From: Candidatus Cloacimonetes bacterium 4572_55
Lineage (GTDB): Bacteria > 4572-55
Assembly (NCBI GenBank): GCA_002084765.1
Contig: NBMB01000031.1
Location: forward strand, 3,821 to 67,820
Length of the DNA: 64,000 bases
Direction: 5' to 3'
Numbering within the stretch: the stretch's first letter is position 1; each line of letters starts with the position of its first letter. Position numbers and translations under genes: made by a program. Below are positions 6,355 to 11,058 of this stretch, piece by piece. The notes under the pieces were generated by a model. The model saw only the letters and a program-made list of their open reading frames with translations. It was not told the origin of the DNA and did no database searches.

Positions 6355-6861
6355 CTAATCGCTCGATTCTTTCAACAATTCTTGTAGAAACATCAATGAA
6401 ACCCTATCTTTATCTCGAAACGTCTCTTTTTTTACTGCAATCAAGGTTTTTAAATCCAACGTATGCACGCGTAAATCTCCACTCAAATCCATTTCAACCG
6501 TATAAGGAAAAAGCCTATCATAATCACGATTTTTGCCGATCATTCCCAGAACATTCAATGGTCCGCGTTTGGTTTCAAACAAATGGTGACCCAACCCAAG
6601 CAGAGCCGTTGCGTCCGGCTTAATAATACGCCCAAATTGACCCCGGTAGATTGTGTCCAGGGATTCCAAAGCTTCAATCAGGCGAGCCACATTGTCGATG
6701 TGTCGCGAATGAACGATATCCAGATCAAATGTTGTTATCGGCGCGCCGTGCAGTATGGCTCCGACGCCGCCTACGATAATAAAATCAATCTTGTAGTGAG
6801 CCAGTGTTTCCAATAAACAGAAGAAATCAACGGATGATTTTGGCACGGCGCAACCTCTCAA
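6355..6861 (-). CDS. Minimal nucleotidyltransferase (Pol-beta superfamily, MNT-like)
   Basis: 168-aa ORF. IIVGGVGAILHGAPITTFDLDIV fits the hG[GS]-x9-13-Dh[DE]h nucleotidyltransferase signature. No other domain is recognised. Confidence 0.6.
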   Translation of the reverse strand: MRGCAVPKSSVDFFCLLETLAHYKIDFIIVGGVGAILHGAPITTFDLDIVHSRHIDNVARLIEALESLDTIYRGQFGRIIKPDATALLGLGHHLFETKRGPLNVLGMIGKNRDYDRLFPYTVEMDLSGDLRVHTLDLKTLIAVKKETFRDKDRVSLMFLQELLKESSD

Positions 6862-7117: not shown

Positions 7118-7525
7118 TCAAATATGCCCATTAAAAAGCATACCGACAACGTCCAGATCAGCTTCCAGAAAGTCGTATCGAATCAATTCCCTCCTCGATA
7201 CCCATCGAATTTGCTCAAACACATTGTTTTCCATCTCTCCGATGTAGTTTTCGATCTGGTAGAAAAAAAGATGCACCTCTATTGCGACCGATCCGTGACG
7301 CTCATAAACATGACGCGTGTGCGAGACCAGTCTTCCGACTGACGCTTGAATCGACAGTTCCTCCCACAACTCACGCTGGAGACATTCGGGACCGGTTTCT
7401 TTCGGTTCGATTTTCCCCCCTGGAAATTCCCACTTAAGGGGCATTTCGCCGGCTTGATGGCGTTGGCAGATCAAAACTTTGTTGTTTTCCTCAATAATTC
7501 CGGCAGCGACTTGAATTTGTTTCAT
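7118..7525 (-). CDS. NUDIX hydrolase, MutT-like (8-oxo-dGTP/CTP pyrophosphohydrolase type)
   Basis: 135-aa ORF with Nudix box GGKIEPKETGPECLQRELWEELSI preceded by VAAGIIEENNKVLICQR. Confidence 0.85.
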   Translation of the reverse strand: MKQIQVAAGIIEENNKVLICQRHQAGEMPLKWEFPGGKIEPKETGPECLQRELWEELSIQASVGRLVSHTRHVYERHGSVAIEVHLFFYQIENYIGEMENNVFEQIRWVSRRELIRYDFLEADLDVVGMLFNGHI

Positions 7526-7531
7526 AACCTG

Positions 7532-8519
7532 TTATGATTTCTTTCGTTGGAAGATATAATGCTTCACGTCCAGGCGGAGAGATAAGACAATGACTGTGAG
7601 CAGAAAAAGGATCGCCGCTATCGTGAATGGGAGGGAGTAGGTCTCTCGATAATAGAGCGCGCCTTTACCGATTTTTGATTTTTCTTCCTCAAGATAGGGC
7701 ATGACGCTAATGCCGTAATCATTTGCAATACGTCTAATCTGCAGAATATGGATAATCGGCAGACCTCGTTCCGCCATGCGGGTGATAACGCCTTCTGCTG
7801 GGAACTCGACCGCGGTCAGATCCCGAGACAAGCCCGCTTTGATCAGCTTTCCGTTCTGTGACGATCCCAAGCTGGCGATACCACCGCCAATATTGATATA
7901 GACCTTGATACTCTTTCTCCGGCTCCTCTCCATTTCACTGTAGATATCCAGCCGTCGGTCGATACTCGCGCTGAGATGGCTTTCATGGATAAAGTCCATC
8001 TTTTTGTCAGACTCGGAAATTTTTGAATTTCTCTTGATCGCTTCTTTTAACAGGCTACGTCCTTTCCGACTTAAGCCGCGTCCACGATCTCCGCCGCCGC
8101 CTATTGATACGGCTTTAGAACGGTAGTGGATCAGCCCTTTCTGATAAAGCTCGGACTCCATATCCAACCAGGTGAAATCCGGATTGCTCGCGCCCCATGA
8201 CGAAGCACCGATGGAGGTGACGATAATTGGCTCCAACTCCATGTAACACGCCGGTATCGGTGGTGATCAAGGTATATTGTTCGCCGATCAGACCGGTTTC
8301 TGCCGGGTCGTTTTCTTTATCAATCGGAATACCCAGCTCGACAATACGCTCCTTCAGGGCATTCTGCGCCAGGGATGCCAGTCGAGTGGCTTCGGTTTTC
8401 TGTTTAAGATAAGGCTGGGCTTTAGGCGACTTCGAGCTCTCGACCAATGCGTAAACCGCAATCGAAAGAAGCGTTAAACCAATCAGCAAATAATGGGAAG
8501 GAGATCGATAGATGTTCAT
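7532..8519 (-). pseudogene. Poly-gamma-glutamate-system-like membrane-anchored protein, reading frame broken near 8240-8255
   Basis: ATG 8519 overlaps the pgsC stop as ATGA. Frame A reads MNIYRSPSHYLLIGLTLLSIAVYALV...LIGEQYTLITTDTGV. Frame B (8242-7532) reads ...LEPIIVTSIGASSWGASNPDFTWLDME... 8519-8242=277, which is not divisible by 3. TM helices are present at both ends. The family call comes from remembered motifs only. Confidence 0.55.
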
Positions 8520-8977
8520 AAGCTCAGGTCGCCTCCGTAAAAGATGATCATCATCATTTTCACCAATACGGCAGTCATAATCATGGTGCAGACCGTCTTG
8601 TTCACGCCCTGCCGCTCCATCCAAATAGCGATCAAGCCAGGAATGATATAGCCGACTGCCTGAAAATCCATCTGCAATTCCGTGATGGGAGCCTGAAACA
8701 GTTGACGGGTCGCCCATCCCGATATGAAACCAATGAGAATGGTCAGAACCGTGCGGCGACGGCCATAAATTAACATAAAATTGGATAAAAGCCGGATAAG
8801 TCCGAACGTGGCTAACGCGGCGAGCAATGTGCCGGCAATGCGCGAGGGGTGATGAATCATCAACGCCATGTAACCGGGGACGACCATTCCTCCGGCAGCT
8901 AACCCAAGCGCTTCCGAGAAAAAAAGGCTAAGGAGTAGTCCCAAGCCAATGAATTGAGGAGTGATTATCGGATCCAT
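8516..8977 (-). CDS. pgsC: PgsC/CapC-like small membrane protein (poly-gamma-glutamate synthesis component family)
   Basis: 153-aa ORF. GLLLSLFFSEALGLAAGGMVVPGYMALM, LIYGRRRTVLTILIG and GYIIPGLIA align well with my memory of B. subtilis PgsC (LLSLIFAEKTGIVPAGLVVPGYLGL, ILYGRRKF, GIIVPGLIA). Confidence 0.8.
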   Translation of the reverse strand: MDPIITPQFIGLGLLLSLFFSEALGLAAGGMVVPGYMALMIHHPSRIAGTLLAALATFGLIRLLSNFMLIYGRRRTVLTILIGFISGWATRQLFQAPITELQMDFQAVGYIIPGLIAIWMERQGVNKTVCTMIMTAVLVKMMMIIFYGGDLSL

Positions 8978-9068: not shown

Positions 9069-10163
9069 CTAACACGAATTTGGTATTTCAATATTTTTCC
9101 CTTCATAATTTCGTAATGTCCATGACGACTCGTCTTTTGAAACGACGTAATTCGGATCCAGGGGAATTTTACCGATACGTGTGGATATCGCATACCGAGG
9201 CACGGCAAAACCTGTTGTAAAACCCTGCAAGTCCCTTATGATCTCCTGGCCTGTTTCAAGCGGAGTACGAAAATGGGTACTACCTGTTACAAAGTGGCAG
9301 TGGAAAATATAATAGGGTCTGACGCGTATTTCTAAAAGTCGGTGCATCAACTTTTTCATGGTTTTGGAATCGTCGTTGATCCCTTTCAGCAATACGGTTT
9401 GATTTCCCAACGGAATCCCTTCGCGTAACAATATGTCACACGCCTTTGCAGTTGCTTTTGTGATTTCTTTGGGATGATTAATTTGGGTATTGATCCATAC
9501 CGGATGATGCTTAGCAATAATTTTTGCCAAATTTGAAGTGATTCTCTGCGGAAGTGTGCAGAGGGTTCGCGTTCCTAATCTGATGATTTGCACATGGTCT
9601 ATTTTTCGTATCTCGCCTAAGACATAGTCCAGTCGCTCATCTTCAACCATCAGCGCGTCTCCACCCGTAATAAGCACATCTCTAATTTCCGTTGCCTGCT
9701 TGAGATAATCAATCGCCTTTTCGATACGATTAAGCGATGTGTCTTTGTCTGTCTTACCAATTCGCCTTTTACGGAAGCAATGCCGGCAATAACTCGGACA
9801 CTGGTTGGTTAAATAAAGCACTAATCTATCAGGATAAAGTTGAAATAAACAATCTACAGGGAGGCTTTTCTCCTCTTTTTTAGGATCATAAACTCCTATA
9901 GTATCACCAAGTTCTTTTATATCGGGAATCATCTGTTTTCTGAGCGGGCAATTTGGGTCGCCCTTATCCATCAAACTCGCATAATAGGGGCTGATAGCAA
10001 ATCTTAACTGTTTAGAAACAGATTTGATACTATCAATTTCATACGGGGTCAGGTCTACATACTGGCTCAATTGTTCAATAGATTCAATCCTATTTGCCAA
10101 CTGCCATTTCCAATCATTCCATTGCTTACTCACATTCACGTCCATCTCGTTCACGCCATCCAC
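9069..10163 (-). CDS. KamA-family radical SAM aminomutase-like enzyme (substrate pocket not lysine-type)
   Basis: 364-aa ORF. WNDWKWQLANRI, ISPYYASLMD, YPDRLVLYLTNQCPSYCRHCFRKRR (CxxxCxxC), DVLITGGDAL, PQRIT, HPVWINTQINHP, GNQTVLLKGIND and RVRPYYIFHC are collinear with lysine 2,3-aminomutase. Confidence 0.85.
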   Translation of the reverse strand: MDGVNEMDVNVSKQWNDWKWQLANRIESIEQLSQYVDLTPYEIDSIKSVSKQLRFAISPYYASLMDKGDPNCPLRKQMIPDIKELGDTIGVYDPKKEEKSLPVDCLFQLYPDRLVLYLTNQCPSYCRHCFRKRRIGKTDKDTSLNRIEKAIDYLKQATEIRDVLITGGDALMVEDERLDYVLGEIRKIDHVQIIRLGTRTLCTLPQRITSNLAKIIAKHHPVWINTQINHPKEITKATAKACDILLREGIPLGNQTVLLKGINDDSKTMKKLMHRLLEIRVRPYYIFHCHFVTGSTHFRTPLETGQEIIRDLQGFTTGFAVPRYAISTRIGKIPLDPNYVVSKDESSWTLRNYEGKNIEIPNSC

Positions 10164-10226
10164 AAAAAATTTCCTTTTTGTTAAAATTATATATGAGTTG
10201 CCTCATACATCCTCAAAAATTGAGAA

Positions 10227-10763
10227 TTAATACTTTTCCTGAATCCGACTCCACTCCATTTTAAACCATGGCGTGTACCTATCCGGATTTTCCGCCAAAT
10301 CTCGATTCAGCTCATCAATCGTGACGAATTTCCATTCATCAATTTCATAGGGATTTGCGCGAATCGGCTCCTCGCTACGACCCATATAAACGGCACACAG
10401 TTCGTTTTCCGATCCTTTGTCGAGATAATTTGCCTGATATTGAAATTTATAGAGAAAACGAAGTTCCGCCTGCAAGCCGAGTTCCTCTTCCAGGCGCCGC
10501 TTTGTCGCAGTCTCATAGCTTTCCCCTTTTCGAGGGTGGCTACAGCACGCGTTTGACCAAAATAGGGGCCACAAGGCTTTATCCGCCCCCCGTTTTTGTA
10601 ACAAAATCTCGCCATTCCCGTTAAAAATAAATATCGAGAACGCTCGGTGAAGAATTCCTTCCCCCTGATGACAATCCGACTTTGGCTTATAACCGATCTT
10701 ATTATCGTCCTCGTCCACCAAGATCAAAAGTTCGCTATCAAAAGAGACCTGTTTGTGATCCAT
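10227..10763 (-). CDS. idi: Isopentenyl-diphosphate delta-isomerase, type 1 (NUDIX fold)
   Basis: HRAFSIFIFNGNGEILLQKRGADKALWPLFWSNACCSHP, RRLEEELG, ENELCAVY and YTPWF match type 1 Idi. I prefer start MDHKQVSF at 10763. The ORF-track start 10886 adds a non-homologous extension. Confidence 0.85.
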   Translation of the reverse strand: MDHKQVSFDSELLILVDEDDNKIGYKPKSDCHQGEGILHRAFSIFIFNGNGEILLQKRGADKALWPLFWSNACCSHPRKGESYETATKRRLEEELGLQAELRFLYKFQYQANYLDKGSENELCAVYMGRSEEPIRANPYEIDEWKFVTIDELNRDLAENPDRYTPWFKMEWSRIQEKY

Positions 10764-11058
10764 GGGGCTTGCTCCGTTAATTTTTGAAAAGTTGCATTGT
10801 GCATTTATAGGCATGCGTTTATCATAGCGTGTGTAAAGATAGCAAATCGATGCGCGATTGTCAATAAATTTTAAGACCATAACCAAGATAGCGAATCGGC
10901 TTGGATAAGCTCAATTGTTGAGACATCTGAAAAACTGTTTGCAATTTAGCGACTTCTTAGTATAATATCTACGGAAAATCAAAAATTATGTAGCGCAGAA
11001 CGTTATTCTGCATTACAGGCGGGGTTCTCCGAAAATTTAACAAAAAGGACGGCATATC

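Follow-up and report, generated by a model that had tools for sequence, protein, structure and literature searches.

A rare His/Ser class of the KamA radical SAM family in a Cloacimonetes genome, with a possible preference for an anionic amino acid

A 64,000-nt stretch of DNA from Candidatus Cloacimonetes bacterium 4572_55 (contig NBMB01000031.1, positions 3,821 to 67,820; hereafter, the window) codes on its reverse strand for a radical S-adenosylmethionine (SAM) protein from the KamA family, designated P0001. The gene is preceded by idi, which codes for isopentenyl-diphosphate isomerase, and is followed by genes for a PgsC/CapC-like membrane protein, a protein attributed to a poly-gamma-glutamate (PGA) system, and a NUDIX hydrolase. 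P0001 has the cofactor-binding residues of lysine 2,3-aminomutase (LAM), while the two aspartates that bind the lysine side chain in LAM are replaced by His and Ser. The His/Ser pair defines a small, separate clade. The enzyme kind itself is already known, and what is new is the His/Ser variant. We tentatively propose that it is an aminomutase for an anionic or polar amino acid. The coordinates of all features are collected in Table 1.

The gene of P0001 is the sole long open reading frame (ORF) at its place in the ORF listing. Its product is assigned to the KamA family based on hidden Markov models, cofactor motifs and a LAM-type fold. The Pfam domains Radical_SAM (PF04055) and LAM C-terminal domain (PF12544) are both assigned above threshold. 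TIGR00238, the general model of the KamA family, is the only one of the family models to pass (315.6 bits; cut-off 199.2). The function-specific models stay below their cut-offs. The best-scoring one is TIGR04368 (glutamate 2,3-aminomutase, 482.4 bits; cut-off 650), followed by TIGR03820 (AblA-type lysine 2,3-aminomutase, 429.6 bits; cut-off 525.4), TIGR04468 (arginine 2,3-aminomutase, 415 bits; cut-off 600) and TIGR03821 (EpmB, 222.6 bits; cut-off 369.3). No other KamA-family gene was found in this genome.

The original prediction, which was made from the letters of the window, described the protein as collinear with LAM, retaining CPSYCRHC, the carboxylate-binding Arg and the Lys that binds pyridoxal phosphate (PLP), but having His and Ser in place of the lysine-binding aspartates and a Gly loop that is shortened by two residues. 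All of this is reproduced by the alignment with LAM from Clostridium subterminale SB4 (KamA, PDB 2A5H). In a phmmer search against PDB, residues 13-355 of P0001 align with residues 15-360 of 2A5H (343 residues, E 7.5e-117). There are just two small gaps, one of a single residue near query position 90 and the other of two residues in the Gly loop. Sequence identity to LAM, including AblA of methanogens, is ~47-50%. The YPDR motif is shared in addition to the cysteines of the iron-sulfur cluster, Arg134 and the PLP lysine (Lys337) of LAM. The codon coordinates of the motifs on the window were verified separately. His290 is located in an ungapped block and Ser327 is anchored on its N-terminal side by an ungapped VPxY/F strand, so that the aspartates are not conserved at shifted positions. 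Besides these two replacements, Arg112 of LAM is a Leu in P0001. An AlphaFold2 model of P0001 (mean predicted local distance difference test score 84) has the same predicted fold as LAM (Foldseek against 2A5H: E 5e-39, template modeling score 0.86).

P0001 also lacks the Cys-rich tail at the C-terminus of LAM, which is involved in zinc binding and oligomerization, and ends at residue 364 rather than 416. The zinc site of LAM reportedly consists of Cys268 and the C-terminal Cys triad, as described for the 2A5H structure. The position of Cys268 is an Asp in P0001, so that this zinc-site feature is not found either.

Table 1. Features of the KamA-like gene and of its neighbors. Coordinates refer to the window; all features are on the reverse strand.
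Feature	Position	Strand	Basis or remark
KamA-family radical SAM/PLP protein, putative aminomutase, His/Ser class (P0001, 364 aa)	9069..10163	-	Pfam, NCBIfam, PDB phmmer
CxxxCxxC for the radical SAM [4Fe-4S] cluster (C122, C126, C129)	9777..9800	-	LAM C125/C129/C132
Arg131	9771..9773	-	LAM Arg134, alpha-carboxylate-binding
Lys332	9168..9170	-	LAM Lys337, PLP-binding; preceding Gly loop two residues shorter than in LAM
His290	9294..9296	-	at LAM Asp293, first ligand of the lysine epsilon-ammonium group
Ser327	9183..9185	-	at LAM Asp330, second lysine ligand
Lys95, clade-specific cationic residue	9879..9881	-	LAM Leu98; class comparison
Arg134 of P0001, clade-specific	9762-9764	-	LAM position 137; class comparison
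Arg323, clade-specific	9195-9197	-	LAM position 326; class comparison
Arg329, clade-specific	9177-9179	-	LAM position 332; class comparison
Type 1 isopentenyl-diphosphate isomerase (idi, NUDIX fold)	10227..10886	-	63 nt upstream of the kamA-like gene; NF002995, 168.8 bits (cut-off 127)
PgsC/CapC-like membrane protein	8516..8977	-	91 nt downstream of the kamA-like gene; TIGR04011, 126.6 bits (cut-off 96.45); PF14102
TIGR04332 'poly-gamma-glutamate system protein'	7532..8519	-	NCBIfam; split at 8243/8244
MutT-like NUDIX hydrolase	7118..7525	-	6 nt after the TIGR04332 gene; PF00293, 1e-18; TIGR00586, 91 bits (cut-off 97.9)

The 120 best homologues, which were retrieved from 5.8 billion protein clusters, were classified by the residue pair at LAM positions 293 and 330. 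Most frequent is Gln/Asp (63 sequences), followed by Lys/Asn (16), His/Ser (12), Glu/Asp (10) and Asp/Asp (10), with few cases of Asn/Asn, Tyr/Asn and His/Asp. With P0001, the 12 His/Ser sequences share 54-86% identity. They are monophyletic, with a support of 100 in a FastTree phylogeny (214 sequences) and of 99 in an IQ-TREE phylogeny computed with a mixture model (63 sequences). A profile built from the clade separates its members (604-695 bits) from all other sequences (at most 535 bits). His290 is invariant in the clade, while His occurs at this position in 1% of the other family members. Between the gene of P0001 and its 85%-identical homologue, the ratio of nonsynonymous to synonymous substitution rates is 0.11. 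Thus, the clade is sharply bounded, rare and under purifying selection. In a scan of genome contigs, the best 80 of at least 600 matches were of the Asp/Asp, Gln/Asp and Lys/Asn types, without any His/Ser protein among them.

The sister of the His/Ser clade in both trees is formed by other classes with a short Gly loop (Gln/Asp, Glu/Asp, His/Asp and some Asp/Asp), with a support of 93 in the IQ-TREE phylogeny and of 52-92 on the FastTree nodes. This short-loop group is in turn sister (support 93) to a long-loop group, which consists of Lys/Asn, Asn/Asn and Tyr/Asn proteins and includes the true glutamate aminomutases. The short-loop classes, annotated as 'KamA family radical SAM protein', are thus the nearest phylogenetic neighbors of the His/Ser class. 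They share with it a loop that is shorter by two residues, the lack of Arg112, the short protein length and scores below all equivalog cut-offs. They differ from it in that Asp330 is kept and in that none has Lys98, Arg326 or Arg/Lys332 (LAM numbering). The Gln/Asp class is considerably more common than the His/Ser class (65 versus 12 among the 214 sequences).

When ten class representatives were compared to the equivalog models, only the Lys/Asn protein passed (TIGR04368, 707 bits; cut-off 650). This agrees with the Lys and Asn residues that had been given for glutamate 2,3-aminomutase (Eam) in the original prediction and that are described in the literature (PMC3965090). P0001 had been considered neither of the lysine nor of the glutamate type, and this holds with respect to its residue signature, since all equivalog scores are below the cut-offs and His/Ser is invariant in a clade of its own. 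No member of this clade has a known substrate. The Gln/Asp, Glu/Asp, Asn/Asn and Tyr/Asn classes are likewise below every NCBIfam equivalog cut-off, and Gln/Asp short-loop proteins occur in metagenome-assembled genomes of Spirochaetia, Nitrospirota and Deltaproteobacteria. The SFLD authors already pointed in 2013 to many KamA-family classes without an assigned function (PMC3965090). Judged from the scores of the class representatives, such classes are the rule rather than the exception.

The His/Ser clade was compared with all other classes column by column, using LAM numbering. All clade members have Lys98, Cys108, Phe110, Leu112, Arg137, His293, Phe294, Arg326 and Ser330, which are rare in the other classes. 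The nine core members have Arg or Lys at position 332, which is a Pro in 85-100% of the sequences in most other classes and in 55% of the short-loop Asp/Asp class. Each of the four cationic residues (Lys95, Arg134, Arg323 and Arg329 in P0001) is found in 0-9% of the other family members. Arg at position 134, the ligand of the alpha-carboxylate, is by comparison present in 97-100% of the members in every class. His291 is common to the His/Ser clade and the Lys/Asn (glutamate aminomutase) class, while other classes have Gln. Arg137 recurs in the Asn/Asn and Tyr/Asn classes, which are the other classes devoid of both aspartates. The glutamate class likewise has residues of its own at positions 98 and 110 (Met and Thr, respectively), which suggests that these positions line the pocket. 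Positions 110 and 112 adjoin the conserved YPDR motif. If the gained residues are located in the pocket, as we presume, two negative charges would be gone from this region, with as many as four positive ones added. The side chain of the substrate would then be anionic, or at least not cationic.

We infer that P0001 catalyzes an aminomutase reaction. An L-alpha-amino acid would be bound as an external aldimine on PLP (attached to Lys332), with its alpha-carboxylate held by Arg131. The 5'-deoxyadenosyl radical, generated from SAM at the [4Fe-4S] cluster, would drive the shift of the amino group from C2 to C3. A side-chain pocket that is devoid of both acidic lysine ligands, but has several additional cationic residues, would accept neither lysine nor arginine. 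The conversion of L-glutamate to beta-glutamate, or of a longer acid such as L-2-aminoadipate, is the most likely reaction under this proposal. The different substrate that had been deduced from the residue pair is thus predicted but not proven by it, and the gained cationic residues and His291 keep glutamate among the candidates. Glutamate is our guess for the simplest substrate. The pair of Eam, Lys and Asn, is longer than His and Ser, so that an acid with one additional carbon (2-aminoadipate) would also fit. At the locus of the closest homologue, a gene for piperideine-6-carboxylate (P6C) dehydrogenase, which yields 2-aminoadipate, is found two genes downstream (780 bits; cut-off 730).

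Several observations weigh against an acidic substrate. The shorter His/Ser pair is in itself a difference to the true glutamate aminomutases, and the His/Ser clade is not nested within their group in the IQ-TREE phylogeny. The lead to 2-aminoadipate comes from one locus, and P6C dehydrogenase equally occurs in relatives without a His/Ser enzyme. We have discarded the co-occurrence with this dehydrogenase, because all three related genomes have its gene regardless of whether they have the enzyme, and its neighbors here are uninformative. There is no conserved partner gene that would indicate a pathway in the His/Ser loci examined. Beta-glutamate is a known compatible solute. Both ablA and eam have been linked to osmoprotection (PMC9337991), but an Rfam search detected neither an osmotic-stress riboswitch nor any other RNA element, both near the gene and at the five related loci described below.

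Eam resembles P0001 in that both aspartates are replaced by non-acidic residues and in having His291, and the C-terminal end of the TIGR04368 model coincides with that of P0001. P0001 differs in having His/Ser rather than Lys/Asn, in lacking the N-terminal ~50 residues of the model, in its short loop (all 21 Lys/Asn sequences have a long one), and in belonging to a sister group rather than to the Eam clade. EpmB (YjeK), the aminomutase for beta-lysylation of elongation factor P (EF-P), is, like P0001, a short KamA-family protein without a C-terminal domain (PMC2821294). In contrast to EpmB, P0001 stays below the TIGR03821 cut-off, and no epmA or efp was detected nearby among the genes scanned. 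Both lysine-binding aspartates, which would be required in lysine aminomutases such as EpmB, are also absent from P0001; this comparison refers to the residues of LAM. Alanine 2,3-aminomutases have been engineered from LAM of B. subtilis and P. gingivalis (Cargill patent, PMC9850924), where a change of the active-site Asp to Gly or His directs the scaffold to a substrate other than lysine. These are laboratory variants with few point mutations, whereas the His/Ser proteins occur in nature and form a deep-branching clade, with about ten changes specific to it.

A targeted scan of metagenomes revealed five other His/Ser loci, representing three gene contexts, with the window being the fourth. 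At the locus of the closest homologue, kamA is preceded by a P-type ATPase gene and followed by genes for a 288-aa protein and P6C dehydrogenase. In the second context (two loci), kamA is followed by an overlapping NUDIX gene, murC and an Rce1-like gene; one of these loci also has a transglycosylase gene upstream. In the third, the order is integrase, kamA, NUDIX and murC. None of the five loci contains pgsC, a TIGR04332 gene or idi, and the sole recurring neighbor of His/Ser genes is a NUDIX gene. Two other neighbors were considered as partners and rejected. The murC of Microgenomates-type members is ordinary (407 bits; cut-off 335) and part of a compact, mixed operon. For the 288-aa protein encoded beside the closest homologue, neither a family match nor a relative in this genome was found.

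One of the loci with the second or third context (L097) also codes for an anaerobic ribonucleotide reductase NrdD (L097:4802-8194) of 1130 aa, which has an insert of ~330 residues (residues about 181-512) matching intein-containing models and probably representing an intein. An activase-like radical SAM gene follows.

The distribution of the gene suggests lateral spread of a single, self-sufficient aminomutase gene. The KamA gene at the closest locus (L095:688-1746) is 85% identical to that in the window, whereas the neighboring P6C dehydrogenase is only 60% identical, and searches of this genome at E 1e-10 yield no match to MoaC, the P-type ATPase or the 288-aa protein from L095/L096. One His/Ser member is labelled Microgenomates, and neither a genome from the same family (G001) nor one from the same class (G002) has an orthologue of P0001. 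In addition, the G+C content of the gene (41.6%) is slightly below that of the neighboring genes. Movement between distant lineages as a single unit would fit a trait that depends on one enzyme. The DNA under study originates from marine sediment. A hydrothermal-vent metagenome of another study contains short contigs that are identical to the kamA/idi region (9700-10913), so that the organism, or a near-identical strain, is not confined to the sediment from which it was sequenced.

The gene run in the window, which was reported correctly as tight and co-directional in the original prediction and is confirmed by Pfam and NCBIfam assignments, is not conserved. Its genes are separated by 63, 91, -4 and 6 nt, with the stop codon of pgsC overlapping the start of the TIGR04332 gene (ATGA), and there is no terminator-like site between genes (a weak one is found inside pgsC). 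The NF002995 match of idi begins only at residue 51 of the ORF, for which a TTG at 10886 is listed as start codon. At 10864-10836, there is a good promoter-like site, which has TTGACA, a spacer of 17 nt and a TG-extended -10. Translation thus probably begins at the ATG at about 10763. Downstream of the NUDIX gene, an ORF of 168 aa (6355-6861, reverse strand) has no match in Pfam or NCBIfam.

In the assembly, the TIGR04332 gene is represented by two overlapping ORFs (8115-8717 and 7532-8242). Compared to relatives, ~53 codons are missing, and the frame changes by +1 at 8243/8244. However, at exactly the joint 8243/8244, a Logan contig from the probable source run (30,355 nt, depth 21) contains 152 additional letters. 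When these 152 nt are restored, a single frame results, coding for a TIGR04332 protein of ~379 aa. We thus attribute the break to an omission in the assembly or to a minor variant, and have rejected a pseudogene with an out-of-frame deletion of 53 codons because of this independent contig. Other apparent lesions in the window may likewise be assembly omissions. The third gene of the system, pgsB (TIGR04012, 423 bits), stands by itself elsewhere, on contig C92:22811-23995 (L094:7812-8996, reverse strand), where it is flanked by genes for a SPOR/beta-helix protein and for two hybrid histidine kinase/response regulators.

Our preferred explanation is that P0001 is a functional, stand-alone 2,3-aminomutase from a rare subfamily, acting most likely on an anionic or polar amino acid; we put its chances just below even. 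With the laboratory evolution of LAM into alanine 2,3-aminomutases having hinged on the change of an active-site Asp to Gly or His (PMC9850924), the natural substrate might be a small neutral amino acid, e.g., L-alanine, and the resulting beta-alanine might feed pantothenate and coenzyme A synthesis. This genome (93% complete) has panC, while panD was not found. However, the genome from the same family, G001 (99% complete), also has panC and lacks panD, but has no KamA homologue. Its lineage thus obtains beta-alanine by another route, and we have dropped a role in beta-alanine supply, as the pattern is the same in a relative without the His/Ser enzyme. A methyl side chain would also leave the four gained cationic residues unexplained, so that we consider a small neutral substrate unlikely. 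Retention of lysine, or another basic amino acid, with a different mode of side-chain binding, as in a divergent LAM or EpmB, is the least probable of the options. It would fit a genome with P0001 as its one KamA-family protein and the LAM-like state of all cofactor motifs, but neither ligand position has an acidic residue, the clade shows a net gain of positive charge, and the scores are below the cut-offs for AblA (430 vs. 525) and EpmB (223 vs. 369). The genes scanned at the loci did not include a partner such as epmA, efp or ablB.

The adjacent pgsC and TIGR04332 genes raise the possibility of a dedicated enzyme, which would provide a beta-amino acid such as beta-glutamate for a capsule-like polymer made by a PgsB-type ligase system. 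The tight spacing of the run, the separation of these two genes from pgsB and the intactness of the TIGR04332 gene in the reads are compatible with such a role. None of the five other His/Ser loci, however, has pgsC, TIGR04332 or pgsB. At the TIGR04332 loci of relatives, the order pgsB-pgsC-TIGR04332 is found in at least 4 of 7 cases, and none of the 7 has a KamA-family gene within ~1.5 kb. The link to Pgs is therefore seen only once, the gene run is uninformative on function, and a polymer-related role appears improbable. A different type of chemistry on the KamA scaffold, with a peptide, a nucleotide-linked or a phosphorylated compound as substrate, possibly involving the recurring NUDIX neighbor, is also doubtful, if a little less so. 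A NUDIX gene is at most two genes away in two independent lineages (idi upstream and the MutT-like gene downstream in the window; a NUDIX gene overlapping the 3' end of kamA in L097-L099), and several additional cationic residues would suit a phosphate-bearing ligand. Yet between the two lineages, the NUDIX proteins have an identity of just ~34% over 64 residues, with no specific family matched, and the locus of the closest homologue lacks a NUDIX gene. The Arg for the alpha-carboxylate and the PLP lysine argue for a free alpha-amino acid as substrate.

To our knowledge, only three substrates (lysine, glutamate and arginine) are established for enzymes of the KamA family. We speculate, at chances somewhat short of even, that the His/Ser clade represents natural 2,3-aminomutases whose amino acid substrate is outside the range of known radical SAM aminomutases (L-2-aminoadipate or another anionic amino acid; alternatively, alanine). 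In this case, a beta-amino acid for which no enzymatic source is known would be produced by means of a single, horizontally mobile gene in anaerobes from sediments and in bacteria of candidate phyla. The significance is limited by the many KamA branches that are already known to lack an assigned function, by the rarity of the His/Ser branch, and by surroundings that indicate no pathway. In public data, several His/Ser proteins bear the label 'lysine 2,3-aminomutase', which is very probably wrong. Beta-amino acids are sought-after building blocks and osmolytes. If our proposal is true, this natural branch with its re-charged pocket would represent a fourth specificity of the family, or at least a second way of binding glutamate, and it would be a ready-made template for protein engineers.

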